Positions 15,976-49,057 of a stretch of DNA of 64,000 nucleotides are shown here, in pieces. How positions within the stretch are numbered: the stretch's first letter is position 1; the number at the start of each line of letters is the position of its first letter. The stretch is from Dipteris shenzhenensis. Its lineage: Eukaryota. The stretch lies in NCBI GenBank assembly GCA_047967505.1, contig CM106538.1; one strand, written 5' to 3'. The notes under the pieces were generated by a model. That model saw only the letters and a program-made list of their open reading frames with translations. It was not told the DNA's origin and did no database searches. Position numbers and translations under genes: made by a program.

Positions 15976-18900
15976 ATGGAAGGGACGAGTGGAAGCTCGT
16001 CCGATGATGCACCAATGCCCGGGAGCACGAAGTGGCTTACGGAGAGGTTATGCTGTCATTGCACTCATTGCAAGTGAGAAGTACAACATCAACGTCGTAT
16101 TATCATGCGCCACTTGCGGATGTATGGGGAGGAGCCGGAACCAGTACCTCCCGTTGGTGTTGCACATGTTGATGGATCATCGGTAAGTCAAAGCTATTTA
16201 AGTTCGCAATCTTATTGTATACCAGGAAATAGAAGATCTTATATTTACACGAAATCTTAAAACAGGATGAGGAGGGTGACGAGGGTACACATATACCTTC
16301 TCACTTTCAACAAGACTATAGTCTCCCGGATGACGATGAGGGTATGGTCGACATGATGGATTCCATTTTTAGGGGCACTACATCCCATGTACACGTGATG
16401 TCAGAGTCTGAGGTCAAAATGCGAGAGTTGCAATCAACACAATTGTATGAGGGTGCTAGGATGTCTAAACTATGTGCTTGTCTCTCAATCTTGAATCTAC
16501 AAGTACAGTATGGGTGGTCGGATACAAGTGTCTCGGCCTTAATGAGGTTAGCCCTTGCATTAATTTGACTCATTATTTGGATATTGTTTGTTTTGAGAAT
16601 CATCATTTGGATAGTGTCTTTGTCATAGGTTGCTCCAGAAGATGTTGCCTGCACCAAATACCATGCCCGCATCAAGAGATGAGGCGAAAAAGATGCTAAC
16701 AACGGTGGGTATGGATTATGATACCATCCATGCTTGCCGTAATGATTGTATTCTCTTTCGTCATGAGCATGGAGATTTGGCTAGTTGTCCAAAGTGTGGG
16801 GAACAACGATATAGAGATGACTTGCAGGGTGAGCGGATACCGGTAAAGGTATTAAGACACTTTCCCATCATTGCAAGAATACAACACATGTTTTGATGCA
16901 AATCCATAGCGGAGTTGATGACATGGCATGCATCTCATCAGTCCACTGATCACACATTGAGGATTCCTGCAGATTGTGCACCTTGGAAGCACATAGATAA
17001 TCAGTGGCCAGACTTTGCGAGGGAGCCACGCAACTTACATCTTGGGCTAGCCATGGACTGCGCGAATCCTTTCGGGTTACGCTCGACATCTTGGTCGACA
17101 TGGCCCATAGTCGTGGTGAATTACAATATCCCACCATGGCTAACAATAAAAAAGGGACACCTCATGCTTGCACTACTTGTGCCAGGAAACTTACAAGGCA
17201 AAAAACATGGACGTGTACATGGCACCTTTGATAGAGGAGTTACAGATATTATGGAGAGAAGTGCAGGTCTTTGATATTTCCAGAGCTCCTAGACATACCA
17301 ATGATGTTTTGGTCAGGGGTATCTTGATGTGGACCATGCATGACTACCCAGGATATGGAGAGTTCGCAGGTAGGTGGTTGTGTCTTTACATGTACAATGA
17401 GGGATTATGCTTTTTTTACTCTCTTTTGCATGCATGTCTTGTACTAACACATTCATGCACGCGTGCAAGACTTGTTACAAGTGGGTACCATGCTTGTCCT
17501 GTTTGTGGACCGGCTCTGAAATCGCTTGCACGCTACTCCAAACATATGAGGAAAAATGTTTATGAAGGTCATGCTCGATACCTTCCGCTCGACCATCTCG
17601 CACATGGAGGTCAGCTTGATCCACCACCATCATATTTGAAGGCAAGTGATTGGATTCAAGCTTGGAGGGCGAATGGAGAGGAACCTCCTCCTGGTATGAA
17701 GAGGCTATCAATCTTTCACGAGCTTCCTTATTGGGGTCAGTTACAAATCAATCATCTCTTGGATCCCATGCATATCTTCAAGAATGTGGGGGCTACTATT
17801 TGAGCACACTTGGTTGGTTCCAAGGACTCGAGAGGAGTGCGAGAAGACTTGCGTGCTATGAATAGGATGTCTCGTTTGTGGCCCCAAGTGCATGCTTCGG
17901 GAAAAGTTGTCCTCCCAAAAGCAACGTGGATCCTCTCTACGAGGGAGGAGGCAGCGGTCAAGGCAGACATTGCCTCTTTTCAAACACCGACAAGGTACAT
18001 GCGTTGCTTGAAAGGAGCATTTTCAAAGGACAATAAGCTTATTGGCCTCAAGTCCCATGATTGGCACAAGGTCTTACAGGTATTGTAAGTAGAATTAGTG
18101 TACCAATAATAGTGATGCGTTAGCGTAATTATTATTATGTTATATTGTTGACATGACTTCATTGTTGCTTTGATAGTTCATCCTCCCAATTACAATAAAA
18201 GGGTGCTTACAAGAAGATGTTAGAAATGCTATATTCAAGATCTGTGGTATTGTGAGGTATGCTTACTATCAAATCGCATTATGTATTTTCTTAATGGACA
18301 TGTGAAATAGGTGGATATCTCAAATATCTTACATATGCATGGACATGTGAAATAGGTGGATATCTCAAAAAGAGATCTCTATATCGAGCATCGAGAAGGC
18401 TAGGGTGGAATCCATCGAAGCCGTATGCTTGCTTGAGAAGCACTTTCCCTCAAGCATTATGACAACTCAAGTCCACTTGCTTGTGCACATAGTTGATGAG
18501 GTGGCTATAGCAGATACCGTTCATAATCGATGGATGTTTTTTCTCGAGCAGTTTATGAAAACTTTAAAGGGGTTTGTAAGACAAAGAGCAAGACCGGAAG
18601 CAAGCATGGCAGAGGGATGGCTTGTGCAAGAGTCATTAGTATATATCACAGAGTTTCTTGCATCCACGGATCCTGATATGCCGCAAGCTTGGCACAACAA
18701 GGATGATGATCGCATCATTGGCGAGGTTCCCCAAGGAAAAGGGATTGAAAGAAAGATGAGCGAAGAGCAAATGGAGAAATTCAATAAGTTTTGTATCCTC
18801 AATAGCCATGAGATGCAGAAGTGGATTGAGAGATATGAAGTGGCCAAAGCAGAAAGAATAAATGCAAGGACAAGATTCAAAGTAATGTACAGGCAATCAT

Positions 18901-20026
18901 AACCATATCCACGAGATCTGGCTCTTCTCCCTACTCACATGTCACTTGATTGGCTACAACTGGCTCTACGTAAAGCCGAACGTGATGGAGAGACAATAAA
19001 CGAGCGCGAGCGGGAGTTATCATCTGGATGTATGGTGCATGTAAGTTTCTTATCTCTTGACGTAATTAAGTAATTATTTGTGGCAATATATGCTATAAAA
19101 TAGGTGCATCTTCATTGTTTTAATGATGCTCTTTTACAATACAAAAAGTATAGTGCATTATGGTCATATGGACGACATTTTCACGTGGAACGCATCGATT
19201 CAAAGAGAGTCATGTATGATTGTGGAGTCATGGCTAACTTCACACAAGATAGCTGAGCAAGAGCTTCGGATACCAATCTTCTCTCCTCACAATTGGATTA
19301 TTGTGGAACCATACGCAACATCTATAAAATTGATTTCAGACAATTTACTATTTTCATTCTTGATGTAAAATGGTTTAGAACTACTTACAACGGTCCCCAT
19401 GCGACAGTGAGAAAAGATAGTAGTGGTCTCTTTGCAATAGACTCCACCAAACATTGGACCGATGAAAGTGATACTTTTGTTCTTCCCGAGCACTGTGAGC
19501 AGGTGCATACTAATGATTTAATTAGTCGAAGCTTTCATTTTTAAAGTCCATTGATATATATATAATTGACGACATTTGGCACCCATCTTCAATATAGGTG
19601 GTTTTTCATCCGAATCGTTCTGATCCAAGATGGTGGTACGTGATCCAAGTTGCACCACGAAGTAAACAAATTTTTGAAGATCGAGATGTGGATATGGAGA
19701 TACCACTACCAATGCTGGATCCAATTGATGAATCTAGCGAAGAAGATGTAGATCACCATATGAGCCAAGAGGAAGATGCGCATAATGACATCGCACGGGA
19801 GGAGGATGGAGATCACGATATTGACGAAGAAGACAACAATCATCAAGATCAATCACCACACTTAAGCTTTATTGAAGAAGATGAACAAATACTTTTAGGT
19901 GAACGTACGATGCTAGAGTACGATGATGATATAGGAGATCAACTCAGTATAGAGTTGGAGATAGACTTGCTTGGCACCTTAGACTTGGCTCAAGATGAAA
20001 CAGTTGATGTAAATGCTCTTATTTGA
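15976..20026 (+). pseudogene. CACTA transposase (TnpD/Tnp2, Transposase_21 family with DUF4218/DUF4216-type regions), multi-exon, disrupted
   Basis: Exon 1 15976-16182 (CCHCTHC..HLRMYG), then IHACRNDCILF, CPKCGEQRY, FAREPRNLHLGLAMD, STWPIVVVNYNIPPW, WTMHDYPGYG, ACPVC, LDPMHIFKNV, GLKSHDWH, RWMFFLEQFMKTLK, FVLPEHCEQV. GT-AG introns; several stops and frameshifts. Confidence 0.95.
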
Positions 20027-29983: not shown

Positions 29984-31736
29984 CTTGTTCGTGGTAAGGA
30001 GCTCAAGAAAGCAAGCCAAGTTTGTGGTGTCCTGGTAAGAGGACCAGTGTTGCTTTCCTATTTCGAGTTTGGGAGCAAATCTCTGCAGGTAGCACAGCTA
30101 GAAGTGCAGGAGTGCACTGTTTCAGATTGAGAGGCCCTTCGCGGTGTGGACTTTAACCTAGGTTAGTTCAAATTGACCTCAAGTTTGGCCAATGGTCACA
30201 TTTTGGCCATGTGGCAACTCAACCTTATATGTGACATCACCCCGAGTCACCTAACGATGGTAACCCCTGACTAGTGCCATTTCATCATGGGTAGTCTAGT
30301 GCCACATCGTCCCTAACATGTGGCCACCACCTACCACATCAGTTGCCCAGGTGGTAGTGCCACATCACCAATGCCACCTCACAGCCTCCTCACGTGACAC
30401 GTGGCAATGCCAACTCATAGTGCCACCTTAGCATCAGTGCTTCACAAGCACACTATGCTTTACCATATGCACCCATTGTCCACATCATCATTTTTGGGCC
30501 CTCTTGTGCTCAAAATTTTGCCTTTCTTCCAGGGGCCGTATCTTTTGTTCCAGGTGGAATATGGAGGTGCTTCAAAAAGTAAAATTGCTTACCACCTCTC
30601 ACTCTATGCACTTGTCACCTCACATTTTAAATCTAGGATTTGCACTTTGTAGTATCTACAGAAACCTCTTCATCGAAACCCCTCCTGATCAGATCTCATC
30701 CTCTCCAAACCTAGCACTTAAAATAAATGAAGATAAATTTTATTTTGTTGCTTTTCATCTCAATCAACATGTGGACTAGTTATAGGACTACCTACTTTAG
30801 AGGAGAGAACTCCAAAACAAGCCAACTAAAGCCATGCTAAAAATTCTTGATTAGTTCCCAGTCCCTGCGAAACCTATCATCGGTATTCATCTCACACATA
30901 TCAATACCTACTCCATTCTTTAACAAAGGGAAGATTCACTCTTGTTGAGTCACTTGGCTATTTGGTTTATCGATTCAAGAAAATTGCACCTTTGCACTCA
31001 TATGCCACCTTGTAAAGTCACTAGTTGAGTATTTGGCATCGTGTACTACTTCTTCAAGCCTTGTAAAGCCTCTGGCTATCACTGGCACTTGGTTGTTATT
31101 TGTATACATGGTTTTGATTCTTGATGCACCATGGCAAAATCACATGATGACGTCATATTTCTTGATCAAAATGGCAAGCTCGAAATTAACAACTATGGCA
31201 ATTGGAAGTTCAAAATGTTGAACATTTTTCAGCTGAAGAACTTGTGGGACATTGTCACAAAAGATGAGAAGAGACCTGAGCCTACCTCGATAACTCCTCT
31301 TATTACAGACCAGCAACTAGAGCTCACAAAGAAACAAAAAGAGTGATACCAAGGCATGGCTTGCTTTGAATATCATCAACTTCAATGTGAAGGATACAAT
31401 GATCCCTCTTCTTTGTGGGTAGATCTTAGCTGTACTTGCTTGAAAGACTTTGGAAAGAAGGTATAATGCCAACAATATGTCATGTATTCTCTTGTTGGAG
31501 AATCATCTGAACAACAATCGAATGCTTCCAAATGAATCAAGTCCTAGCTTCTTACTCAAATTAAAAGATCTTAGCAAATCAGCTCACATCACTTGGACAA
31601 GAGGTCAAAGACAAGAGACTAGTCCAGCTTGCCATCAATAGACTTGGACTAGATGATAGGCAGTTTGTGACTGCATTAGTCACTCGAGATGCCCCACCAA
31701 CATTTCAACCCATGTCAGACATGCTCACGCAAAAGT

Positions 31737-32054
31737 CCAGATCGTACTATCACTTAGTGAGCATAAAGATCATGGAGGATCAAACCAAAAACGAAAAGCC
31801 ATGGGGAGAGAGACACGAAGTATGAAATACTCAATCTATTCCAAATGTGCTATATTCAACAATACATGATAGGCCTCTTATATAGAGAGTGCCCTTAGAA
31901 TAGTCAACACTTGTGGGATCCTCTGATCCACATCTCTCCTTGTGGATATCCTCAATCCACATCCCCACATCTTGTAGTCCACATCCTAGGGTGGCTCCTT
32001 TGATTATTTCCTTAGCACATACCTTAGCCTCTAATTATGTGCTCATGGCACCAC
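31737..32054. repeat. Possible solo-LTR-like insert interrupting C gag
   Basis: Gag similarity stops abruptly. Segment has a TATA-like tract, short TCCACAT repeats and a ..CCACA end. Boundaries and TSD not confirmed. Confidence 0.3.
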
Positions 32055-32207
32055 AACTCGGGTCACCCAAATGCCCCCAAATGTTCTAGCTAGTAATGCT
32101 AGAAACAGTCTCCCAAACACCATCCTTTGAGAGAGGTGGTGGGTCTGGACGGGAGGGATAGACTGCATCATGGATTGCAATCTGGGAAACCTACTGCCCA
32201 TGTATCT

Positions 32208-32396
32208 TGTATGAAAGGGGAAGTGAGAACAGAAGAGAGAGAGAGAGAGAGAGAGAAGTGCACACGATATAGCTACATGTACACTATGTTGCATTGATGA
32301 ATATATATATGTGAACCCCTTAGGGTTAGGGTTAGGGTTTGTCCCTAGTGTCCTATCTAGATGGTTCAATTTATATCATCCTTAACACCCCCTCTT
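32208..32396 (-). mobile_element. 3' LTR plus PPT of a C-related element in inverted orientation
   Basis: Reverse complement reads AAGAGGGGG|TGTTAAGGATG..GGACAAACCCTAACCCTAACCCTAAGGGG..TACA, similar to the C LTRs. Non-coding internal sequence probably extends to ~33680. Confidence 0.8.
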
Positions 32397-35300
32397 ACAT
32401 TGCACTGGGTGAGTAGAGGGTGCATGTACAAGACCTTTTTGTGTATTTTGTTTGGTGCATATGATAGCATCCAAAACTGAAAATAAAATTGAAAAGAATC
32501 ACCTCCCCTTAGTGCATACCTTGCTACATAAGGTGGTCAATACCTCCCTTGGGTGCTTTCATAGCTACTCTCAGGTGGTTAGGTTTGATTTACAAACATG
32601 TAGGCTGAAGGTGGTAAGGTTTTTACTTCTCAATGCTTGATGTCGATGGCATTCGCTTCTTTGTTTGACATAGCTTGATGCATGGTGCTTTGTTCTTCCA
32701 TGTACCTTAATGCTTTATGTGTGGATGCCATGTTCTGGGCTATGGTCATCTCATACACTTGTGCTTTCGGCATGCTTTTTGCGTTCATGTGTTGATTTGT
32801 TATTTATTGCAAAGGTCTTACCAATTGATTGCTTTCAATATTGACAGTGTCTAATTGCTAACAATGATTCTGACTTGACAGATGCATAGAGCTCAAAAAG
32901 ATGATCACTTTTCCTTTTTGGACCGTGTGCAAATTTATCCTGGATTGGTAGTTATGGCTTGTCGAAGATTTTGTGAAGAAGAGGCGTTTGATGATGTGGC
33001 ACAGGGGTTCATATGTAGAATACAAATTGTGCTTGGCAGGGGCTGTGTGCTTAGGTGGCCCTGTGCCATGTGGCAATCTTTTAACCCAAGGTTACATTAA
33101 CTTTACCATGGTCCACCTAAACTAAACCTAACTATAAACTTAACCAAACACACACCCAACCTTATCTACCATGTGTCCTGTCAATGGACTACCATGTGGT
33201 CTAAGGTTCATCCTTAGAAAATAAAAAAAAGACTTTGCAAACTGTTGCAAAGGCGCAACGATGACAACGATGATTGGAGAAGGTTGCATGGTGGAGACAT
33301 TTGGAAATGAAGAGATTGGAGAAGGTTCGCATTGTTTGGTGCAACCCATGGCCCGTGTGGTCATGTTAGAGACGACGTTGGCATTGAAGGAGGTCGTAGG
33401 AGTCATGTGCAGAGAACTTGCTACTCAGGTGCTTTGGCTGTGTGAAGACCAAGAGGTGCTGGAGCCTCCTTGAAAGTAATGAAGGTAGAAGGCAGTGGAG
33501 GGAGCTATGAGGCGAGAGCTTTGGCGAGTCTGTGTTGAAGAAGGCATTGGCGATAGCGCTAACTACAATTTTTTAGAGCTACTGGGAGGACATTTCTGTT
33601 GCCTCGCTTGCTATGTGTTGGACGTGTGCATTGAGCTAGGCTGAGCATGGAAACAAAGAGCTGCTAGAGGGCGCCGCTACCATTGCTCGGTGCAGCAGAG
33701 TATAGGGGATCCACCAATGCAGAATGTGAAGCAATTTGGTTCAGAAGGCTTCTTTTAGAGATTGAGATACTTTCTAGAGACCCCACTATGCTCTATTTAG
33801 ATAATATGAGCAGAATTCAATTGGAAAAAGACCTAGTGTTTCATGCCAAAACACAAAACATTAAAGTGCATTATCACTTCATCAGAGAGAAAATTCTTAG
33901 TGAAGAAATCGACTTGATACATTATCTGATACAAGAATACGTCACACATATCTTCACCAAGCCACTTTCCCTTAATAAGTTTACACACTTTCAACATCAG
34001 CTTGGTCTTTGACAATTGCAACTTAAGAGGGGAAAGTTAAGGTTAATTTGTACACCTTTGTACATAACTTTTTCCACTGTGCTCTTTTTGCACTCTTATG
34101 CATCTTTTCTTATCTTTATTTCTATTGCCATCATGCAACATTCAAAAAGTCCAAAATTTGTGTTTTGTAAAGCATCCTCTTGTTATGCAGTGCAATTTAA
34201 GAGGGGGTGTCAACAATGGCATAAATTGCACCATAGGTATATGGGACAAACCCTACCCCTAACCGTAAGGGGTTCATGTATATATTCCTATTTTTCATGG
34301 AATACAAGTTAGTGTACAATTAGCCTGTCTTGTGTGCACTCCTCTCTCTCCCTCTCTTACCTCCGCTATCATCTCTCTCTCTCTTCCATTCTGTGTGCTT
34401 TCTATATTGTGTATTTTACGTATTCCAGTTCTTGCATTATTGCTCAGTTATTGTGTTGCTCCTAAAAAATCCCCCTACTCTCTCCACAGCACACACTTTC
34501 TCAACACACATACACAATGCACATGCACATACACATTAGAATGGACAAATGCAGTGCCATAATGCAAAAATGACAATGTAAAAGAAAGATACAATTTGAA
34601 GGAAAGAAGGTTTGATTTGTAAGGTCTAAATTTATTTCTTGAGCCATGTACATGTGCTAAAAATTCACCTTTGGTCCTTTGTTGGTATTTAAAAACCCAA
34701 CAAATCGACCCTCCAATGCTTCTTTTCTTTTAAAAGTCCTTCTGTGAAAGCTAGAATGGACCTATTGAAGATAGTTGCATTGTGACCCAATACATTATCC
34801 TAAACACTTGAGGAATCCAAACATTATTTTCATCCTTCAAAATGTGACCCACACAAGATTGAATTTATAGCTTTGGTCTAGGGTAAGGAGAGTGCTTCAC
34901 CATCATAGAAAGGGTGGGAACAATCAAAGAGAAGAGCTTCGAAGGAGGAAGAGGTTGAGAGGAGGAGATTGAGAGGACAGTGAGAGGAGGAGGAGGAGGA
35001 GGTTGAGAGAGGATTAAGAGGCGGTAGAGCTTGAGAGGAAGGTCTTAAGTCAATGCGGGTAGTTTGGGGGGGTGGGGATACTTTGAAGAGTTTTCTTTTT
35101 TTTTTAAGGGAAAAAAACTCATGAATTTTTAGACCCACCAAGTGAGGGAGGAGGGTAGGGGAACCAACTTAAAAGTCAAGGGAATGAGTAAATGCCCTAG
35201 GAGGTGGCCTAGTGGGGACTAGCTTAAAAGTCAAGGGAATGAGTAAATGCCCTAAGGGCTGGTGAGGCAAGTGAGAGCCTAGTGGGGTGCAAGGGAGGTC

Positions 35301-35699
35301 TCTCCAGGCCAATATGGAACCTTCCATTCTTTTAATTCCCAATCCTTCCCATTGGTTGGTTTGTTCATCACAAATCTTAAGGGTCTAATCAAAGTGTCCC
35401 TTTTTAAGTCCAAAATTCCCCTAGTGTGCAAATATTTTTATGATTTATTGCTAAAACTAGTGGATGATAACTTTTTCATTTTGTGTCCATTCTATCATTT
35501 TTGTCTCAATAAAGCTAATGGGTTCCTTGATCTGTATTTATACTAGAGCTATTATATGAAATAACTCACTTTAATTCATATGACTAGTTCAGTTTATTTG
35601 TATGAGCTTGTCCTTCTCAAGTATTCTGTTTCCTTTTGTGATACTACATACCTTTTTTTTTTTAAGTGAAATCTTATATTTCTCTATGGGAAACCTCAG

Positions 35700-38000
35700 A
35701 AGAGGTAAAAACCCACCATGAAGTACAAAAGTAAATAGATTACAGGAAGCTATTTCAATTATGGCAGAAAGGGAAAATCCAGGTGAGGATGGATTGCCCA
35801 TTGAATTCTACAAGGAATTTTGGGATGTGGTTGGTCTTTTACTCTTATTATGGCAAGAAAGCTTAAACAATGGAGCTTTTCCTTCACACATTAATAGGGG
35901 AGTTATCGAGCTCATCCCTAAGAAGGGTTGTAAAGATGAACTTAGAAACTGGACTCCTAACTATGCTTAACAATAGATACAAAATCTTTGCTAAGGCTTT
36001 GGCTCTCAAGATCCAAAAGAAGATCAAGGAATGGATTTTGTAAAAATAGAAAGGATTTATTAAAGTACATCATCTTCTTGAGGCCATCATTAACATTTGG
36101 GAGAGAGGTGAATATGCTAAAGAAACCAAGCAAGAGATATGTTTTCTCAAGGTGGATTTGTATAAAGATTTCCTCATTCAGTCCTTGTAGGATATGGGGT
36201 TATGCCCCTCTTTTGTTGCTTATGTAAAACTGCTACTCACCAAGGCTTCTACTAAAATATGTATCAATGGTGAAATGAGCCCTTCTTTTTCCTTGAAGAG
36301 ATCAATCAAACAAGAATGCCCCCTTGGTCCTTTGTGATTTGCAATTGCTAATGATTCTCTAGGGTGGCTACTTAAAACCCAAGTCAAGAAAGGTAACCTT
36401 AGAGGCATAGAATTGATTTTTGGCAAACAATTAGTTTGCCAACGGTTTTCTAAGGACACAATTCTCAAACCTAGAAACGTAGTACAGCATGTTGAGTGCA
36501 CTATGAAGTGTTCGGATATATTTTGCAAAGCTCTAGGTCCATAATTAATCATACAAAGATTGACTATGCTACTCTCAAAGGAAGAAAACATGAAACGCTA
36601 AAAGAACTAGGATGCCATATCATTAACAAGGGTACTATTTTTTGATTGCTTGGGATTCCCATGGGGTTTGACATTACCATGAAGCAATGATGGGATTGGT
36701 TTTTGGAGAGGTTTCAGAGGGAGATAGACAAAATGGAGAGGTTATCAAGCCAATCTTGAAGGAAGAAGGATAGTTCTCAACCATTGTATTTATCCTATCT
36801 CCATTTTTTATTTATCCCTTTGGGTTCCAATAGACTAGATAGATTCATTAGGATTTGCAGATCCTTTCTCTAGTGAGGGGACACTAGAATATCTAAAGTA
36901 AGATGGACCTACTGCATCAAGCACAAGGAAAAAGGTGGCTTAGGAGTAATTGACATAAGCTCTATCTACCAGGAAACTCTTTGCCACATGGGTGATTAAA
37001 GCTATTTTGAGTCTAGAATATGACTGGGCATAACTTCTTTTGACGAATATGAAACTGGTCAAGCCCCTAAATGGAAAAATTTTCCTATTCTCTCTAGCAT
37101 TTACAATCTTGAGCCTTACAAAGCTAAGGGGAGTCCCCTTTGGCAATCTATTTGGAAAGAATTTCAAGAAATAAAGGCCTTCTTGCAATTTTCTAGCAAA
37201 GGAGACTTTATGGCTATTGACTCTATATGGGTCTCCTCTATCTTTAAGAATGCCCAACTCAATGATGTGAATAGTTTCTCCTAACCACCCTTGTGTTTAA
37301 AAGAGGATTGCAAACTTGGGGACAACTTTGGGATAAAGAGTAGCTAAGATGGAAGACTTGGCAAGAAATTAGGAGGGAATTTGCTTTAATCAATCAGTGT
37401 CAGTCTGATCATGAGTAGACTTGAACTTTGGCAAGGGAACACATGTTGGAGAGGTGGCACCTTCCTAATCTGATAGAGAAATTAGATGGGGAGGGAGTAT
37501 TTCGTTGCTTCCAATTCCTACTCTAGCCTTTGATATTGAGGATCTTTTCAGAACTCTGAATACAAGATGGCTACTTCAGGACAACAGAGAAAACTGGTAT
37601 GAAAGGTTTGGGAAGATATGGAACAAGGAAGCCTTGAAAGTTGAAAAGATGTTATGCCTATCTTGGCTTATATTACATGAAGCTATGTGGACTAATGCAA
37701 GGGGTCTCACAATAGGGACAGCAGGAGAATAGGGACATGCGTCTCAAAATAGGGACAAGAGATAGCAGATGCAAAATATTCCCTAGTGTTATTGAAGACA
37801 TTTTCCATTTGTTTGTTTCTTGCCCTCATGCTAGAAAGGTGTGGAAATACATCCAGATAGAAATTGGGGAGCTAGTTAGCTAGAAACCCATTTTAATGGG
37901 AGATGCATTTAAGACCAAGTAGGAGCTTTAGTTCCAAATAAGGGATCATGCTTTATGGTTCATTTGGATATCTAGGAACAACTTCCAATTTAATGATGTG
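35700..38000 (+). pseudogene. Non-LTR retrotransposon (L1/Tx1-like LINE) ORF2 remnant: RT and C-terminal zinc finger
   Basis: PGEDGLPIEFYKEFW, IELIPKKG..RNW, YKIFAKALA, RSIKQECPLGPL, and EDIFHLFVSCPHARKVW near 37790. Many stops and frameshifts. Confidence 0.88.
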
Positions 38001-38069
38001 ATGATGCTTACTGACACTCTGTTTATGTCATGGTGGGATGGGAGAAAAGGAAAGGAGAATGGACTTACA

Positions 38070-40940
38070 AATAAGTGCATACAATCTGGAACACAACTTA
38101 TGCATGGGCATCCACATTGAAAGAGTCTACACCATCATTTTCATCTATCTCCACCCATATGCGCCCTTGTCTATGATGGGTTGCACACCACCTTGCATGA
38201 TTCTGTCTTGCATTTGATGAGTTGTATATTCTTCTTTGACGTTCCGTGTTAACATCTTGCACTGCATGGGACACTAAGGACTCTTTGAATGCTAGTGTTG
38301 CAACTACTCTTATTTTGATACGCCTGTACCACCAATGAACCAATAGAACCATTGGGCTTGACTTTAGTTCTACCACCCCCGTGTTGGGTTGCTCTATTAT
38401 TATATGCACAACGTGCTTGCCAATGCGATCTTTCCATGTCCTAAGTGGACCACACTCCAATTCTTTCATAATTCCATGCCATGTATGGTGCATCAGCATA
38501 TAAAATGTGCTGCCAAATAGAAAAACAAATTAGTAAATATAGGACCATTCAATATGCACATATCAATGTCCAAGTTAGAGATTACCATGTACTCTATGAA
38601 ATGATTCTTTTCCCAAGCTATGTCCATATTCTGGCTAAAGTCATTCATAGCATTGATGAAACACTGTGCATCATCATCTTTGAATCTTTCATTTTGTAGT
38701 AAAGGTACCAGGCTATCAAGAGCTAACCACACTTGAGCCTTTTCCAATCTTTTTTGTCCCTTCCCCCCTCGTTCACAACATGCATTCTATAACTTTCTCC
38801 ATACATCAAACTCATTAGCACATTTGAGCTTGTCATTTTTCTTCTTTGCAGAAAGGAATTTTAAAGCCTTGACACTAGCAAAGCTTGGCTTACAAGGAAC
38901 ATTGCCTACTTTTCCATATCTTTTCTCATCTTTTGTAATCTTTACTTGCCTAGAGTGTAGTTCCATATATGAAAGAACCTTTTCAATTTCGCAATCATCC
39001 TCTCACTCTTTTGTTGGGGCTTCAAGTTATATGCATCAATGATGTACAAATGCAACAACTTTTCAATTATTCTCACAATAGCATGAAGCACACAAATGTG
39101 TACTCGCTCAAGAGGAATTTTAAGAATTGGGCTCTATGATAGATCTTTCCCTAGAGCATCCCTATCTAGTGCCTTAGTTTAATCTATCTCTACAAGTTTA
39201 GACACCCATTGCTTTTGATTCTTTTTACCACCCTTTGCAGGTACTCTCATTTGCATGCACAGTGGACAAGGATGGCTTGTATTTGCTCCATGTGCCACAT
39301 TAAACATACATTTAATAGTCTTGAGGTCAGCAACAGTAGCAACTAGATGCCATTCTACATGGTAGGATCCATAGCCCTCAACTTCAAGTAGCTCACCATT
39401 GTTATGACCTTTGATCACACTTGGGATATCGGTTTGGTCAAAAAACCACTTCAAATTTGAATGTGACTTTTTTGGCACCTGCAAAAAAAACTCACATGTT
39501 ATTTCAAAATATTCTAAGTCTTTTTACATTACTGCTTTAAAATTCAAATTTTTATCATAGCTCAAAGGAGCCAATCCCCAAATCTCCTATACTAATTGCA
39601 CATTGAACTATCTTCCATCATCAAGCTCAACTTCAAGGTCTAGTATTCTATTCATCCTTGTCAAACTAACTCTTCCTAATTTTTTGCCTTTGACCACCTC
39701 ACTTTCATCAAGATTTAGTACAATCTTTAGAGTACCATTGCATTCCTCCATAGACATATCATTAAACTTCACCATGGCTTGTAGAACTCTTCGAACATTT
39801 ATCACATAGTTGTTGTTGACTGTCAATTCCAATTCTTTAGACTCTCCACCCTTTGTTTTCAAATTTAGTGTACTACATACATGCTGGGGCTCACCAACTA
39901 AATCAAGTATGCCCAAATTGAGTGCATGCCCAGCCTTATCAACATTAGTCGATTTAGGAAGCGAGGCTTTAACTTTTGCTCCCACAAAAAGACATGTTGT
40001 TTTTAAGCTCTTAAATATGAGCCGATATGCCCTTGTACTTATCCCTATAGTATCACAAACTCCCTATGCACTAGTTGCATTGAAATGCTCTAGAACTTTG
40101 TTGATTGACTTAGATGCTATCTCTGGTTTTAGACTTTTGAATTTTGGATGTTGTATAACAAACTCCAAGAGCTTTTTCGTAAACACTTCACCCATAACAC
40201 TATAGTGCTCATCATGGATAGACATGAGTTCTAAAACACTCCTACAAGCTCTCACTCGATGCTTCCAGTGACCACTTTTCTTGGATATTTCATCCATTGG
40301 ATGCAATTTCCTCTTACGTAGTCTTGGATCCACATTGGAGTATCCTTCATGAATGATAATGTTTTTTCTAACTTTTTTATCTCATCCTTTAGAGCTGTGT
40401 TTTGCATATGTAACTGAATGTATAGTGCTTTCTCCGAATTTAGCATCTAATGTTTGAACTTTACCTGTAATTCCTTATTTTTCTTCTCTATGCCATCATA
40501 TGCAGACATTTGAACACTTGTAGCTCGCATAGATGATACCAAATGTTGATTCCAAGCCTCCAACATTTCAATCCTTTTGTCTCTTTCACTAATCAAAGAT
40601 TGATATTGGCTGTGAAGGCTACTTGCTCCATGACCAGTCAACCTTTGACAATATCCTAACAAACCATTCTCACCCTTACATAGAAACTTTATTAAGCTGG
40701 TCAATCCATGGAATTGAGGAGTCTAACAAGTTTGTGGATCTACTATATATATTTTGCCTTCTAACCACAAATCCATGTGTTTTTCCTTGACTTCGAAGAG
40801 CTACTAAATCACTTTCACTTTCTAAGGAGGATTTATTCCTCTTTAAAAATGGTCCATTCTCTGCATCAATTTGAAAATGGATATCCACCTTTTTTTATTA
40901 TGAGGGACTTGCATGATTTCATACACTTTCCACCTAATAT
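38070..40940 (-). pseudogene. Intron-containing DDE transposase pseudogene of RAG1/Transib(/Chapaev)-like type
   Basis: Ordered motifs IVLNLD(39707)ES, KKSHSNL, VAD(39326)LKTIKCMFNVAHGANTSHPCPLC, ICVLHAIVRIIE, and, after a 76-bp GT-AG intron (38585-38510), YMHILYADAPYMAWNYERIGVWST*DME(38432)RSHWQAR. Coiled-coil-like N-terminal region. Boundaries approximate; no TIRs found. Confidence 0.75.
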
Positions 40941-41092
40941 AATATAACATTGACATCAACAAACAATATACAAACATGACATGTTTTAGAAAAGTATTAA
41001 ACCAAGCAAAAATGAAAACCCCAATTGCATGCAAAATCTAACAATTGAAATCTACAAATTCAAAAAACCATTTACTTATCATCAAACACTAT

Positions 41093-41935
41093 TAAACTAT
41101 GTGAATGAACAATACCTCACAAGGATCTTTGAAGGAAAAATGTGATCAAACTTGTCCTCCTCAATGGTCCCTCTTGTAATCCAGGATGCTGAAGTTGATG
41201 GATTTTTCTCCAAAACTAATTATATGCTTCCAAATAACTCCAAATCTATCTCAAACCATCTTCTATTAAAAACCTCAATAGTAAGAGTGTATCTTTTAAA
41301 ACAAACAAATCTTTCTTCCTCTTCAAATTATGTATTAAAATAAAACAACACAATTACCAAAACAAACTACAAACTAACTGCTTCTTCAAAGTTGCATCAT
41401 AATATCTCATTATTTTCATTGTCTTGCATTGTTCTAAAGGTTTTCTCACCTGAATCTCCATGCAAGTTGCTCTGATAGACCCTGATTTGAGTTGAAAACT
41501 AAAAACATTCTAAAACTACATAAATGAACAGTACCTGATTCTTGGAGCAAGGTTCTTTCAAAGAAAAATGTGATCAAACTTGTCCCTCCCAGTGGTCCCA
41601 AATGTGTTCCAAGAATGATGAAGCTGATGGTTCTTGCTTTAAAACAAATTATATGCTCCCAAACATCTTGAAATCTATTTCAAGCAATATTATGTAGAAA
41701 ACTATTTATAGTAAAAGTGGAAAAGACTCATTTCTCATGAAATTCAAACAAATCTTTCAATGTTTTCAAACCATGTAATAAAACAAAACAACGCATCTAC
41801 ACAAAATGAACTACGAACTAATTGTTTCTTCAAAGTCACATCATTAACAAACAAATCTTGTCATAATCACTGTGTTGCATTGTTCCAAAGATTATCTCAC
41901 CTGAACCTCCATACAAGCCATCTGGATGGACCCCA
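41093..41935. repeat. Degenerate ~420-bp tandem duplication upstream of the RAG1-like gene
   Basis: Shared blocks AAAAATGTGATCAAACTTGTCC (~41136/41564), AATTATATGCT (~41218/41647) and TCTCACCTGAA (~41444/41895). Confidence 0.8.
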
Positions 41936-42699
41936 AACCTTCATAAATGGTTCAAAATCATGCACCCTTAGAGATTGCAATAGGGAAAGTGACTAGTATT
42001 GAGAGATGGGCAAAAGAAAGATTGATTTTCATGCATCAGTAACAACTGCAATGCTTGAAAGTCAATCTTCTTTGATCCTTCTCAAAGAGTCTCGTCCAGT
42101 ACCTCCTTCTAAGCTCCAAACACCCTGCATCATTCATGGTTCACTCAGAACATTGATTGCCTTGTCTTCCTGAATAAAACGATTTCAGATCATGGGAGAA
42201 GCTCAAAGCTGAGAGAGGAATTGGCGAGATTTGAAGGAGAAGCGCCCAAAATAGAGAAAGGAGAAGGTAGGAATCTCATTCAAAAATCTTGAAAGTTTTG
42301 AAAGAATGAGAGTGAAATGGGAGGGAAATGTAGGTAGAGAAGGGAAGTGACAAGATTTTGGCGGGAGAGTCCATCCCATGAGAGGGGGAATGGAGAAAGA
42401 AGCTTCTCACTCAAGAGCCAAGCAAGAAATTTGAAAAGAGGGCTATTGGATGGGAGGATTTGGTTTCACAAATGGTACAAGTTTGGTTAAGAAACTAGGT
42501 TCTCAGTTTGGTTACAGTTAAAAAACGTGATGGGAGAGTTGAGGTAGCAAGTGTGTGCTCCACATCATTGTTTGGGCCATTGAATAAAGAAATAGAGAAG
42601 TCGGGCCACTTCCAATATTCTATTCCCTCCACTAGCCAATATTCTATTGGGTTTTATTCACTTTATTCTTCCATGTCACCAACCCAACTGCTCCCTTAC

Positions 42700-43191
42700 A
42701 GGGTCCTTTCTGAGTCCAAATTTTGGTAATGATAGGGGCAAACCTTCCTTACCAATCTTTGCTTTTGTTGTAGAGCTAACCCTTGAGGAAACATGCCTTC
42801 TTCCACATATTGATGAACATCTTGCAATTCTAGCCATCCAATGTCTACCAAAGAAACCACCCCCCTCTTGTACCACAATGCCTTGAGTAGCTAACTCATA
42901 TGCCTTTTGATTTTCTTTTCCGTTTATATGAACAAACTTGCAAAAATCAAATTGACTACGTAGTGCCATAGCCTTTTGATTAAGCTCCTTCAAATAAGGA
43001 CTTCTTGTCTTGTAATGCCCTTGCTTTTGTTTTATAATAAGCTAAGAATCTCCTCTTACTTATACAATTCTTTCACTTGACTTTGAAGACAACCCTCCAA
43101 ACCAAGAATCAAAGCATTATACTCAGCTGCATTATTAGTTGTGATACCGAGAAACTCTTGTCCTCTTGCCCATACCTCTTGACCTTCAGAA
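42700..43191 (-). pseudogene. Gypsy G2: C-terminal part of the additional (RNase HI-like) RNase H and start of integrase
   Basis: TNNAAEYNALILGL, FVHINGKENQKAYELA and W..DVHQYVEEG..P. Frame joins 49058-49082 and 54063+. Confidence 0.85.
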
Positions 43192-46100
43192 TGTGGGAGA
43201 GGAGAGCACACACAAAGGGATAGGGAGACACCAAAAGTGGTGGAGCAAAAGCTACTCCAGCTTATTCCTCTATCATATATATATGAGTATACATGGGCAC
43301 TGTACAAGTGGGTGGGCACACTGCCCTTTACCCCAACAACCTCCCACTTAAAGGCAGTGTGCCTTTAAGGGAGTATAGTACACATATAATACAATCAGCC
43401 ATAGGCTGAAAAACAAGATGACCAGACCGTCATCCTATGCCCATCGGCACTTTACAATGTGCAAAGTGCATAGAGGATAAGCTGCTAGTAGACATCAGGT
43501 TTGCAGGATAGAAAATGACAAGCTGTAGATGCCTGTCAACCAAGATCTCATGCCAGATCTCACTGGGAGAGTGAACTCTCACCACCACGTGCTCCTGTGC
43601 TAAGTCCATGTGCTAAATCCATAGCACCTGAACTGTCACTGTGTAAAGAAAATGTCTCTGTACCACCTGTGACCATAAGCACATGCCCTACAATAGACCT
43701 CTGCTGGTCTACCCAACCTGCATCACCTGCATGCTGCTCCTGGAAGCATAAGGACCTGATGTCCACAACCGCTTCCCTACTGCCAAAATCTACCATAATC
43801 ATGCTACCAACTCCCATTGCAATGGAAGCAAGAACTAGAAGTGTAGCCCCAATGGCAAACATGTGAGAACCAAGTCTCAACACAGTCATGGATGCATGAA
43901 GTACTGTGGCTGCCATATCAACCATAACTTGCTGCTCAACTGATCTGTGATCGTCAAACCTGTTGTGTTTCAAGTATGGAGCCAATACAGGCAATGGAGT
44001 ACTCAATAACTTCCCCCTCTCCATACTGAAACAACCAAGTATCTAACAAACATCATCAAGACCATGCAGCGCGCACTGCAAAGCATCCCTGTCCATAAGG
44101 AACCATATGGCAAGTAACCTCAGAAGGATAGCGACCTCCTGAATACTGAGACCATAACCTGTCCCACTGCACATCACATCTTGAGCTCTCATAACGGTAT
44201 CAAACCTATGAAGCCAAGCTCGAGGGTATTGCTTCTGGCCATGGAGGCACTTACGAAGTAAACATATCAATGATTCCTGCCCATGCGCAATATGACCCGA
44301 GTCAATAACTACAGAAACCACATTTGTCCTGGCATAACCAGCCAATGGATCATACCGGGCATCATTAGCCAAGGTATCCTCCTCACCATGCATAACCTCA
44401 TCCTCATCTACAAGAGGCACTCCACATCCTGGGAGTAAACTGTAACTATCCATAGAAGATGCATCAACAATCTCCATAGGAGCATAAACCTGTGGAATAC
44501 TTGAGACATATGATCGTCTCTGACCAAAATCAGGAAGTAATCATGGCTGTCCCAACTTTATAACCTGCTCACCGTGGGAAAAACCTCCCACTCCAAGGAA
44601 TATGGGCTGTCCTTGAATAGAATTCGGAGGTATCAGTGCACTTACACCCTCCTGGAACACCACTCTCCTGCTATCCATAGTCCTGGGTTGTCCAAACATA
44701 GCATCCTCTCTAAAATAGACATTATGGCTGCGTATCAACTCTCTAGTTGAAGAATCCCATAACCTGTAGTCACTACTGGACTCACTGTATCCAAGAAAGA
44801 TACACCTCCTCAATCGGGAACCATGAGCATAAGCCTCACAGCCAAACACACGTAAATGCTCATAACATGGTGCCCTGCCTGTCAAGAAGTCAAATGGCAC
44901 TCTACCATTCAGAGATCTCCTGGGTGACCTGTTAAGCAAGTATGCAGCTGTCTTACATGCCTCAGCCCAATAGCATTCGGTAAGACTTGCATACCGTAGC
45001 ATGCTACCAATCCTGTCCAATGGAATCCGATTTATGCCTTCTGCCAAGGCATCGTGAGCAGAAAGATGAGGAGTGGTCAACACCCTCCTGATACCAAGTG
45101 TATCACATAGATGCTGAAATCTAGGAGAGGTAAACTCTGCATCACCATCAGTCATCAAGCTCAATAGCTTCTTTCCTGACTGATTTTCAGCATTACCCAA
45201 GAAGCGCTAAAATGTATCATATACATCATGCTTCTGCCGAATCGGATATACCCATATGTACTTTGTAGCAGCATCAATAAATGTCACAAAGTAAGAGGCA
45301 CCACCCAGTGAAACGGTAGGCATAGGCCCACAAACTGCACTATGAACCAACTGCAATGGCTCAAGATACCTCTCACTGACTGTCTTCCTCACAAAGGAGG
45401 ATCCTGACTGCTGACCATCATCACAATCATGACATAAAATTTGAGAGACATCCATAACAGGAATGTATCTCAATGTTATAAGGGCTTCCATACCTGCAGT
45501 AGACATATGTCCAAGTCTGGCATACCATAAACTAGCTGATGGCTGCTTACTAATCATAAGCATCTTATGCTGGATACCTGATACATGCAATGCATAAGAG
45601 AATCCAACCCGTGATCCCCTAGCCATAACCAGATTGCCTCTAGCAATCTTCCATGCATGATCACCCAAAGAGACATGATAACCTGCCTCAACCAACTGTC
45701 CAGTACTGATCTTGCTCGTAGCAAGTCCTGGTATATGTCTAACCCTCTGTAGAACAAGAATAGAGCCACTAGGCATAACAAGGTGGATATCCCCATAACC
45801 ATAGACATCCATAGAATGATCAATGCCCGTCAAACCACTCTCCACAATGCATTCCTGATATGCACTGAACCATGACCTATGAGGGGTCATATGACATGAA
45901 GCACATGGATCTAACATCCAATCACCGAGAATGGGTACATCAGTGGCCAAGAAGGAGGTGTCAGACATAGACAAAAGAAAGCCTTCATCATTGCTACTAT
46001 CAGTGGAAACCCTGGCATCCACGCCTTGAAGCTCAACATGCTTCTTCTCCTTCTTCCTGTCATTCTTAACCTTGCTCTTCTTCTTGTATTTTCTCAGCCA

Positions 46101-49057
46101 TTTCTAGCAGTACTTTTTCATGTGGCCATACTTTCCACAATAGAAACATCTAACACAAGTCCGAGAGCTAGACTTGCTCCTGGAATTCCCCCTTGAACAT
46201 TTTACCAATTGATCGACCTTTGGAGTGCATATCAAGGCTGTAATTCAGCCCATCAATACATTTCAGCCCATCATGCTGTAACATAACACTATCATGGTCA
46301 TACATCTGGCATATACGAGTATAGAACTCATATGCATGGCAATCTACACCCTGTACACCATCCTGTACCTGCAAGTAGACTGACTTTGAGAGTGATGACT
46401 GAATGATAGAGCATGCTTGCTCATCCATTCATCCCAATCACTCTGTTTAATGCTATTAGGCTTGACACCTTTGCATTGAATGGGCTTATGCTGCCTCTTC
46501 TGCACTAACACATCATAAATCTGCTCTTTCCAATACTGAAAGTTTGATCCATCCAACCTCTCAATATCAAAGAGGGCACTACCAGCTGTAGATGCCATAT
46601 CTGTGGCACAATAGCTCACAACCAAAGAGCAGTATAGTGCAATAGGCAACCCAAATGACCAAAAAATATAGTGTTGTCCAGACCAATCAGGTTTCCAAAT
46701 AAACTGGCTGATCCAATGCTCAAAAGCACTCAGCCATAAAGAGGCATAAACAAGAATATATGCAGCCCAGTAACCTGCCAATGCCTAGCAATCCAAGTAA
46801 GAAATGCACTGAACCAAATGAGCAATGCCTGCTCAACCAATGGCAATAGGAGCCCAGCTTAACTATCCATAAACATCAGTGTGGCATCCACCAATGCAAA
46901 TCCATAATGCATCAAAATGGCATTTACTGCATCACCAATGCATCACCTCAAGCGCGCAATTGTTTGGCAACAAAATCAAGCATTCACCACTTGCCAAATG
47001 TGCCAAAGTGACTTGCCAAAATGCCAATAATGCCCTTGGACTGAAGTGAGATCCCAATCACTTTCTGTAATTTACTGTGAGTTCCCAATTCACTGTTGTG
47101 CAAGAGAAATCCCTACAACAATACCTCACAGCCACTTTGGGCAAAATAACACGCTGTCCCTGTCTTTGAACAGCGATATCTTTTCACTGAAAGACCTGAT
47201 GCCAAAGCTGTAAACAGCAAAGTTGTAGCTGGTAGAAAGATCTACAACTTGTCAGTTGACCTCAAGAGCCAAATCCTTCTGGATTCTCAGATATTCTCAC
47301 TTGAAAAACAGCTTCCTGCACATTGGTCACAAATAGATAGTAGACTGCAACTTTTTGTGGTTTTGCAGAGGCTGTAACTCCTGGAGCTTATACCGGATCA
47401 ACTTGCTTCCAAAAGCAAAGTTGTAGTATGTTTTGTGAGCTACAACTTTCCAGTTCGGCACAAAGTGCAATTCCACACCAGGAAAGAGATATTCAGTCCT
47501 GAAAATGAATGTTCTGTCATTTAAAAAAAAACAGCAGCAACTATTCAATGACCTGTCAGTCAAGAATATCAATCATTTTCTCGTGGGCTTCAAAGCATAA
47601 CCAGATATTGAACATCTAATTTCTGAGCAAAATACTTGCATATACTGTGGCATCCAATGCATAAACCGCTTTCTGGAAATTGCATACCAGAGAATGCCTT
47701 TCAAGAGTCCCCAAAATGCATTTACTGCATGTATATGGCCTCATTATATTGGCATTCAAGTGAACATCAAATTGTATGCATTTGCCACTCACTTATGCAT
47801 CCAAAATGCATCACCAATGGCATATACCAAGTGACATTTACTGCATCATTTTGCCAAAATGCATCAACTTGCCAAAGTGTATCAACATGTATGCATTTGC
47901 CAATATACAGTCTGCAAAATGGCTGTCTGCACACTGATCACGAACTGTCCCTATTTTGGATAGTAAATAACTTTGTACTGTAAACTCGGATGACCGAACT
48001 GTCAACAGAGAAAATGTAGCCCTTCCAAAGTTCTCCGACTCCTCTATTGGGCATCGAGCCTAAATCCTTATGGATTTGCAAATACTTGCTGTCGAAAATG
48101 GCATTCTGCTCACTTTTACTGTCTGAAATACTGTCAGATTTCCAGACTAAAAATAAAGAACTCACTCTTTTTCTCCAAAGTGGATGTTATTGCTATCACT
48201 GGGCTGCTCTTCCTTTGCTCACAGGAGGGATAAGGGTATGGAGAGAAAGAGACTCCTATCTACTCCATCTAAGAGCTCGCAGTGGCTCACGAGCCATCTG
48301 CAGCGGTTGCAGCTACAAAGAGCTTCCCTACAGCCCTCTCCAAACAACGCTCTCCAATGAAGGCTCAACCTCAACTCCAGCCTGCAACACACCCCAACGT
48401 AGAAACCTCTGCATTGAGCAACTCCTACAATGCCAGTCGCACGGCATCACACCTCTCTAGTCAACGTCTAACAACAACGCATCGCTCAAAGCTCTAGCCG
48501 TAGCAGTAGTAGCAAGCCTAAATGACGCTCCTACGATCGGATCTCCGAGTCTCCAAACACTTCACAAGCAAGCCCAAGCCTACGGCCGTCAACGATCTCC
48601 AGCAAGTATCTACGAAGCAATGCCTCCATCAACGAGGCAATGAAGCTCCCATGAGACAACGTCAAGACCAACGGACAGCGGTCTCCTTCCAACGCTAGGT
48701 TGCTAGAGCACTGGAGCGCTGGAAGATAATCCAAAGTGATTCTTGCAGCTGCATTATAGAGCAAACAGATTTGGATGATGTCTACCCAAAATCTCTCCGT
48801 GAATGAGAGAATCAAGCTCTCCAAAGCTCCCGGTAGATCTCTCGAAGCAGTGCCCGTTCTCCTCTCACCGAGCTCCTCGTAGATCGAACGCCATGGGCTC
48901 TGATACCAGTTGTGGGAGAGGAGAGCACACACAAAGGGATAGGGAGACACCAAAAGTGGTGGAGCAAAAGCTACTCCAACTTATTCCTCTATCATATATA
49001 TATGAGTATACATGGGCACTGTACAAGTGGGTGGGCACACTGCCCTTTACCCCAACA
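43192..49057 (-). mobile_element. Ty1/Copia element D, non-autonomous, both LTRs intact
   Basis: 147-bp LTRs (43192-43338, 48911-49057) differing at one base, TSD CAGAA (43187-43191, 49058-49062), PBS 48897-48908, PPT 43339-43349. Confidence 0.96.
43430..46598 (-). pseudogene. Copia D degenerate gag-pol
   Basis: IERLDGSNFQYWKEQI, CFYCGKYGHMKKYC, WMLDPCASCHMT, LVHSAVCGP, YWAEACKTAAYLLNRSP, LRVFGCEAYAH. Only scraps of RT and RNase H; no YVDD. Confidence 0.9.

Follow-up and report, generated by a model that had tools for sequence, protein, structure and literature searches.

In a 64,000-nucleotide stretch of Dipteris shenzhenensis DNA (contig CM106538.1, assembly GCA_047967505.1; hereafter the window, by which we mean the whole stretch) the minus strand at 38098-40914 carries one dead, intron-bearing copy of a DDE transposase gene, which has no function of its own. 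An earlier reading of the letters alone, which we call the original prediction, had taken this region for a decayed member of a lineage related to RAG1 and Transib or to Chapaev. The whole gene (38098..40914) runs from an ATG at 40914, which is out of frame, to a TAA stop codon at 38100-38098, and would hold about 890 codons if repaired. We found by tblastn that residues 2-898 of P0007, an intact relative of 898 amino acids, match the minus strand of the window in collinear pieces at 34-55% identity (aligned segments at 40891-40814, 40782-40558, 40342-38978, 39017-38580, 38515-38369 and 38367-38134); the longest and best of these pieces is 34-35% identical (E values of 1e-81 to 2e-79), and identity rises to 55% in the block around the catalytic Glu. 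The homologous start is without an in-frame ATG (the window reads KKVDIH against MKYDIH in relatives, and the nearest ATG is the one at 40914), nine in-frame stop codons have their first bases at 40725, 40446, 40066, 39610, 39589, 39181, 39136, 38789 and 38443 (minus strand), and the reading frame shifts near 40800, 40450, 39000 and 38368, so that the copy has suffered at least four frameshifts. Its N-terminal part (40558..40894, minus strand), which aligns with P0007 residues 2-116, comprises a module conserved in our alignment A1 (DIHFQIDAEN..., DLW..G.IY..DP...PQFHGLTSLIKFLCKGENGLLGYCQRL), after which a coiled coil begins; one frameshift and the stop at 40725-40723 interrupt this part of the gene. 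At the other end the C-terminal tail (HWWYRRIKIR ... NSSNARQNHARW; 38131..38367, minus strand) aligns with P0007 residues 819-897 and is entered via the frameshift near 38368.

The motifs that had first drawn attention to the gene (LNLD, KKSHSNL, DLK-x-CPLC, CVLH, PCKPSF, KFL, ILYADAP and IGVWST) were each found on the minus strand where they had been placed, and RVHICVLHA, PCKPSF and KALKFL are read there as well. Because the homology is collinear over about 890 codons at an E value of about 1e-80, this set of motifs is not a product of chance. The same homology tells against the idea that the stretch is foreign DNA brought in by contamination, or a chance assembly of motifs, to which we give almost no credence: in its favour, the window copy has no close relative in the protein collection searched, the nearest protein sharing 54% identity over 132 amino acids, but the gene is embedded in a contiguous 64 kb among a zf-RVT-bearing long interspersed nuclear element (LINE), copia, gypsy and CACTA sequences, and its GC content equals that of its surroundings. 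That the window is of plant type is a fair inference.

An AlphaFold2 model of P0007 was built from P0007 and 147 relatives with no templates. The first catalytic Asp codon (39709-39707, minus strand, in LNLDESE) corresponds to D411 of P0007, which lies on model strand 403-414 and is Asp in 36 of the 38 motif matches among the 147 relatives. The second (39328-39326, minus strand, in VADLKTIKC) corresponds to D508, which follows model strand 497-507 and is Asp in 37/39 matches, and the catalytic Glu codon (38434-38432, minus strand, in IGVWST-TAG-DMERSHWQAR) to E785, which opens model helix 784-800. In the model, D411, D508 and E785 are thus placed on or next to the elements of the RNase H fold expected for a DDE triad. 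The Cys pair CPLC (39268-39257, minus strand), 20 residues past the second Asp, is by its spacing the counterpart of the ZnC2 pair of RAG1, which from that spacing, rather than from residue-level superposition, we take to be C727/C730; a CxxC is found in 36 of the 45 relatives that cover the site. The counterparts of RAG1 H937 and H942 lie at 38509-38492 (minus strand), where relatives have H-x4-H (the second His is kept in 6/8 of their YMH....X matches) and the window copy has H-x4-D, as the original prediction had noticed. The window copy therefore keeps its D, D and E codons and three of its four zinc ligands, the fourth reading Asp, and an in-frame TAG (38443-38441) stands two codons ahead of the catalytic Glu codon.

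Two introns interrupt the gene. Intron B (38585-38510, minus strand; 76 nucleotides, GT..AG, phase 0 on both sides) separates ...EYM from HILYADAP, and introns with GT..AG ends occupy the identical position in four related loci (85 nucleotides in L004, 98 in L008, 69 in L010 and 78 in L011), with no intron there in L001 or L002. Intron A (39560-39479, minus strand; 82 nucleotides) separates ...GSFE from VPKKSH and has kept its polypyrimidine tract and AG acceptor, its donor now reading CT; GT..AG introns are found at this site in L010 (79 nucleotides) and L013 (74 nucleotides) and none in L001. A small frame slip lies just before the donor of intron A, and KKSHSNL comes after its acceptor at 39479. 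Acceptors of the window introns are U-rich. Moreover, many database proteins of the family end in ...HYMV, as expected from gene callers reading through intron B. The presence of spliceosomal introns, previously argued from the 76-nucleotide GT-AG intron, is therefore confirmed, and both introns sit at positions common to relatives from other sources.

Relatives of the gene and their likeness to RAG1

A read-through translation of the window gene (P0003) finds, among 6863 candidates, the proteins P0004 (E 1.6e-71) and P0005 (E 6.6e-62) at 34% identity, and a search with P0005 returned ten proteins whose profile, run against 1.84 billion proteins, collects 987 cluster representatives at E<=1e-3, of which 562 remain at 1e-10 and 115 at 1e-30. 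Most of these are fragments, and a length of about 900 amino acids is reached by several intact database members. Throughout the family the N-terminal module (DLW..G..YP.DP....P.F) is followed by a coiled coil, and the shared motifs further include KLDE(S/M)E, EWHLAGDLKTLKCMYN..GANAK.PC.YC, IPL.RVH.CTLHA..RI and GLHGG as well as THYMHIL.(A/V)H.P, GSL.IWSTQGME(R/K)SH and WWYRR. No Pfam transposase family, Transposase_21 and DUF1280 included, reached its cut-off for the pieces in the window, for four long members (P0004, P0005, P0007 and P0009) or for any of the 147 relatives, and no relative came up when contigs from prokaryote genomes and from viruses were scanned by pattern, a method that reaches close relatives only. 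The gene thus belongs to a large eukaryotic family of DDE transposases that is uncatalogued in Pfam, Repbase and Dfam being outside this comparison. In three divergent members (P0062, P0081 and P0095) the D, D and E motifs are present together with the H.C..H block, the CxxC pair is missing, and the protein ends in a long acidic tail.

RAG1 is the enzyme that cuts antibody genes (the V(D)J recombinase), and its ancestry is traced via Transib and RAGL transposons that are known mostly from animals. The P0007 model has a mean predicted local distance difference test score (pLDDT) of 77.9 and a predicted TM-score of 0.68, with 330 residues at pLDDT >=90 and a long helix at residues 93-155. When it was compared with the PDB by Foldseek we obtained 49 matches at E<=1e-3, and all of those listed were RAG1 (best E 2.8e-11), the lancelet RAG1-like protein BbRAGL (4.6e-7) or HzTransib (9.5e-6), with Hermes at rank 50 (E 0.051). 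Structural superposition of Foldseek's top chains with VIA-align gave the same picture, in that Z was 20.0 for RAG1 (4wwx_E), 18.7 for BbRAGL and 18.2 for HzTransib, ahead of P element (10.2), ISCth4 (8.9) and Hermes (7.9); the match to 4wwx_E covers 449 residues at a root-mean-square deviation (rmsd) of 4.6 and places model residues 259-847 on RAG1 475-1008. A Foldseek-independent VIA-align scan of 48,161 representative chains, in which only 9 chains reached Z>=8, preserved this order (RAG1 16.0-20.0, BbRAGL 18.7, HzTransib 13.6, P element 10.0, ISCth4 8.3, Hermes 8.0). The model also has the RAG1-type order of domains (dimerisation/DNA-binding, pre-RNase H, RNase H, zinc module and C-terminal domain), and the window copy is collinear with P0007. 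The structure prediction proposed earlier as a check therefore finds that an intact relative fits RAG1, BbRAGL and HzTransib far better than it fits other transposases, the next of which have Z of about 10.

At the level of sequence, the link to RAG1 comes from P0044 and P0102, two members with uninterrupted C-terminal halves. In phmmer searches of all 177,635 PDB sequences each of them returned 15 sequences, all of them RAG1 (E 0.0024-0.014 and 0.0041-0.019, respectively). The alignment of P0102 with RAG1 spans 38 residues without a gap, at 928-965 of a 1040-residue chain that we take to be numbered like full-length mouse RAG1, and puts H185, H190 and E210 on 937, 942 and 962; the title of PDB entry 6cik, RAG1(E962Q), points to residue 962 as catalytic. 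The gapless alignment of the last block to RAG1, put forward in the original prediction, was in this way reproduced for two intact relatives whose only PDB matches are RAG1. The same two are the only ones of the 147 relatives to touch the Pfam RAG1 family (PF12940), at 15.8 and 16.1 bits over profile positions 553-593 of 653.

RAG1 and RAGL are thus the top structural match of the family, and RAG1 shares with it the H-x4-H ... GS.G.W...G.E block and a CxxC about 20 residues past the second Asp. The two nevertheless differ in several respects: identity is only about 15%, the N terminus of the family consists of an unrelated conserved module and a coiled coil and, by inspection, is without the conserved Cys/His zinc-finger pattern of RAG1, the genes carry spliceosomal introns, and no ends resembling recombination signal sequences (RSS) were found in repeat and terminal-match scans. 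In the family, LDESE holds the first catalytic Asp, which the model puts on strand 1, and does not correspond to the RAG1 DESDHETL. HzTransib (PDB 6pqn/6pqx) has the same overall fold (6pqx_A Z 18.2 over 398 residues at an rmsd of 4.1; 6pqn Z 13.6-14.3), and, as in Transib elements, no RAG2-like gene was recognised beside the window copy. It gives a weaker Foldseek E value than RAG1 (1e-5 against 1e-11) and 11-13% identity, its chains receive no phmmer match, and the family protein is longer by about 400 residues. Transib elements are defined by a 5-bp target-site duplication (TSD) and CAC-type terminal inverted repeats (TIRs), neither of which turned up near the window copy or in eight related loci.

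Judged by the model, intact members possess an RNase H-like domain with one Asp on strand 1, another after strand 4 and the Glu on a late helix, and this catalytic domain is interrupted by a zinc module whose CxxC lies 20 residues past the second Asp and whose H-x4-H precedes the Glu by about 20 residues. If it works like these relatives, such an enzyme would bind the element ends as a dimer and nick the DNA beside the terminal repeat; the freed 3'-OH would then be used to close the flanking DNA into a hairpin, and the excised element could be inserted elsewhere. The window copy is incapable of transposition because of its nine stop codons, its four or more frameshifts, its lost start codon and intron donor, and the Asp in place of its fourth zinc ligand.

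Several observations weigh against placing the family with RAG1 and Transib. Tblastn with P0007 finds a single copy of the gene within the 64 kb, and, since no TIR or TSD was found, mobility is inferred. The two matches to PF12940 fall short of its 25-bit cut-off, and the pieces in the window, P0004, P0005, P0007 and P0009 do not match it at all. Among the PDB sequence matches of P0003, P0005 and the profiles A1 and A3 there is no RAG1 (the 22 matches of A1 and 4 of A3 are coiled-coil or unrelated proteins only), and the window's own 49-residue Glu block has 0 matches to PDB sequences. Sequence kinship to RAG1 is therefore local and weak to modest, and the case is borne mainly by the fold. That comparison has its own limits in that the PDB is without CACTA, Mirage, Chapaev, KDZ and Novosib structures, so that a fold search cannot rank those against RAG1, and in that AlphaFold2 was trained on RAG1 structures, which may inflate the likeness, although templates were unused. 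In language-model features, the top cluster of P0007 carries DUF1280 (the Chapaev domain) in 51% of its members, and an open reading frame (ORF) of 114 amino acids from the window is linked to RAG1 clusters and equally to Transposase_21 and Plavaka clusters. Having weighed these points, we consider it very probable that the window gene is a dead DDE transposase gene from a family that has the architecture of the RAG1 core and Transib and stands outside the Pfam catalogue. The proposal of a decayed RAG1/Transib- or Chapaev-related lineage is accordingly supported by the fold, by the RAG1-only PDB matches and by the contrast with CACTA described below.

Comparison with named transposase superfamilies

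The window provides its own positive control for CACTA, in that a CACTA transposase lies in pieces at 17150-18902 on the plus strand and its ORFs match Transposase_21 (6e-17) and DUF4218 (4e-24). CACTA transposases have a general plan like that of the family, with an Asp, then an Asp and a CxxC, then a His pair ahead of the Glu. In contrast to the CACTA ORFs, the window gene matches neither Transposase_21 nor DUF4218, and neither family is among the 25 of 91 listed for its 147 relatives; when the family profile was compared by hhalign with the CACTA ORFs of the window the probability was 0.2%. On these comparisons the gene is not a CACTA transposase, and the earlier statement that the gene and the CACTA element of the window are of different lineages holds.

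A broader alternative is that the family is part of a superfamily that already has a name, such as Chapaev, another CMC branch or Novosib, and for which a usable Pfam model or solved structure is missing; its likeness to RAG1 would then stem from deep shared ancestry and not from membership in Transib proper. The nearest language-model cluster of P0007, the one with DUF1280 (PF06918) in 51% of its members, scores 0.95 with 199 shared features, and the next several are RAG1 clusters at 0.85-0.88. In PMC3985635, DUF1280 stands for Chapaev transposases and is grouped with RAG1, apart from Transposase_21, and PMC4411706 counts Chapaev inside the Transib superfamily and gives Chapaevs an N-terminal Chapa zinc finger. 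The Transposase_21 and Plavaka clusters that the 114-residue ORF brings up besides RAG1 point in the same general direction, as does the description of Archaeplastida as the primary host of Novosib (bioRxiv 10.1101/2021.09.26.461848). Against this, P0004, P0005, P0007 and P0009 gave no match to PF06918 (hmmscan), PF02992, PF13960 or Plavaka/KDZ at E up to 1-10, and none of PF06918, Transposase_21/DUF4218 and Plavaka/KDZ is among the 25 families listed, out of 91, for the 147 relatives. By inspection, the N-terminal 100 columns of A1, which span the module, hold no Chapa-like conserved Cys/His pattern. Moreover, the only PDB sequence matches of P0044 and P0102 are RAG1, and the hhalign comparison with the window's CACTA ORFs was null. 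For Novosib-type superfamilies the Pfam blanks are no argument, because the cores of Novosib, Kolobok, Sola, Academ, Dada, KDZ and Zisupton are undetectable with Pfam according to PMC5751038. On balance we regard membership in one of these named superfamilies as rather unlikely.

Ends, mobility and neighbouring genes

We looked for element ends in 30000-48000 of the window and in the eight related loci, both by a repeat search and by a scan for 12-of-14 terminal matches with TSDs, and found neither TIRs nor a TSD; RSS heptamer and nonamer motifs were not searched for. This agrees with the original prediction, which had seen no RSS-like TIR. Contigs of the related loci are short and the window copy adjoins a LINE fragment, so the ends of the element may lie beyond view. 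That fragment (35867-38120, plus strand), recognised by reverse-transcriptase-like ORFs seen by eye and by a zf-RVT match (4e-6), abuts the stop codon of the decayed gene, and it may have cut off or separated the 3' end of the element. A candidate end was seen where the loci L005 and L006, at first 99.7% identical, begin to diverge; this was rejected, since the break sits 9 nucleotides past a splice-acceptor-like sequence, as would be expected of an exon junction, or may be a variant of the assembly.

In five divergent loci, from records with names of one prefix, a second gene of two exons lies directly downstream of the transposase and converges on it (L004:3258-4884, L009:3102-4572, L010:3287-5120, L011:1502-1988 and L013:2940-3687, each on the minus strand of the locus). 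RAGL transposons have their RAG2-like genes in this same position. The second gene has no Pfam match and is not kelch-like by eye, and the fold predicted for its second exon from 5 sequences was unusable (pLDDT 40.8). In the window it was not found by tblastn or with a hidden Markov model, and no RAG2-like ORF was recognised beside the window gene, where no dedicated RAG2 or kelch search was made. In two other loci from different records (L001 and L002) an intact, intronless transposase ORF is followed, in the same order, by a histone H3-like gene (L001:2129-2707, plus strand, Pfam Histone 5.6e-26), which has the same orientation as the P0007-type transposase ORF, and nucleotide similarity between the two loci extends about 620 nucleotides beyond the transposase stop. 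The histone gene may reflect conserved synteny or may be a captured gene.

These arrangements bear on whether the family consists, at least in part, of domesticated host genes, with the window holding a dead paralogue and not the remnant of a transposon. Consistent with domestication are the missing TIRs and TSD in the window region and the eight loci, intron positions kept across divergent members, several intact database members of about 900 amino acids, and the intact ORF and histone H3-like gene that L001 and L002 share in order, with similarity running about 620 nucleotides past the stop. However, the eight divergent paralogous loci come from records with one whole-genome shotgun accession prefix and are 34-88% identical to P0007 at the protein level, which is at least eight paralogues in one such set; the family amounts to about 1000 clusters, mostly fragments, and some of its database ORFs are joined to reverse-transcriptase or integrase pieces; the window copy is heavily decayed, with a LINE fragment on one side and other repeats on the other; and in five divergent loci the transposase is accompanied by the convergent second gene, an arrangement also seen in transposons of two genes. 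Domestication therefore seems to us improbable, and the window copy is most likely what is left of a transposon that, surrounded by LINE, copia, gypsy and CACTA debris, decayed where it stood. Among the chimeric database ORFs, P0140, P0080, P0057 and P0113 fuse a piece of the family to RVT_2, Integrase_H2C2, DUF7794 or AAA domains, and these are probably read-through of nested insertions or of neighbouring genes.

Copia and gypsy fragments are found throughout the window, which is a repeat-rich setting, and an RVT_3 RNase H-like ORF lies at 42676-43041 on the minus strand. Upstream of the decayed gene by 200-1000 nucleotides, a unit of about 430-450 nucleotides occurs twice in tandem at 41120-41920 with 76-84% identity. 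Further away, 32226-32423 and 34172-34399 contain inverted repeats of 43-63 nucleotides (79-91% complementary) that enclose about 1.8 kb and hold telomere-like GGGTTAGGGTTAGGGTTT, with (GA)n at their flanks.

Place of the family among RAG1 relatives

The original prediction had described families of this kind as known mainly from animals and some fungi and protists and not from land plants, a view that is outdated: PMC9435367 counts 39 plant proteins that are Transib-like (Juglans, Capsicum, Hordeum, Silene and Corrigiola are given in its figure legend), places Transib subgroup I closer to RAG1-like proteins, and records RAG1 relatives beyond animals in bacteria and fungi, in a pelagophyte alga and in some plant assemblies. 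Because of those plant proteins, RAG1 relatives in plants are not new. In the literature on plant and algal Transib, RAG1-like and DUF1280 proteins we found no description of a family with such an N-terminal module, introns and partner gene, and the supplement of PMC9435367 may list members. What is new here is therefore best called a divergent branch that is uncatalogued in Pfam, and not a first plant case; a name for it in Repbase is possible.

Going beyond this, we tentatively suggest, as a possibility short of an even chance, that the gene in the window represents, in plants, a deep branch of the RAG1/Transib lineage that so far has no name. Such a branch would have a zinc-His/Glu block closer to vertebrate RAG1 than insect Transib is, would be spread over many eukaryotes with conserved spliceosomal introns and an N-terminal module of its own, and in one lineage would be accompanied by a convergent partner gene in a RAG2-like place. 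A family of this kind would widen the set of RAG1 relatives from which the origin of the recombinase core and its partner can be reconstructed, and would add a type of transposon that current plant repeat annotation leaves unclassified.

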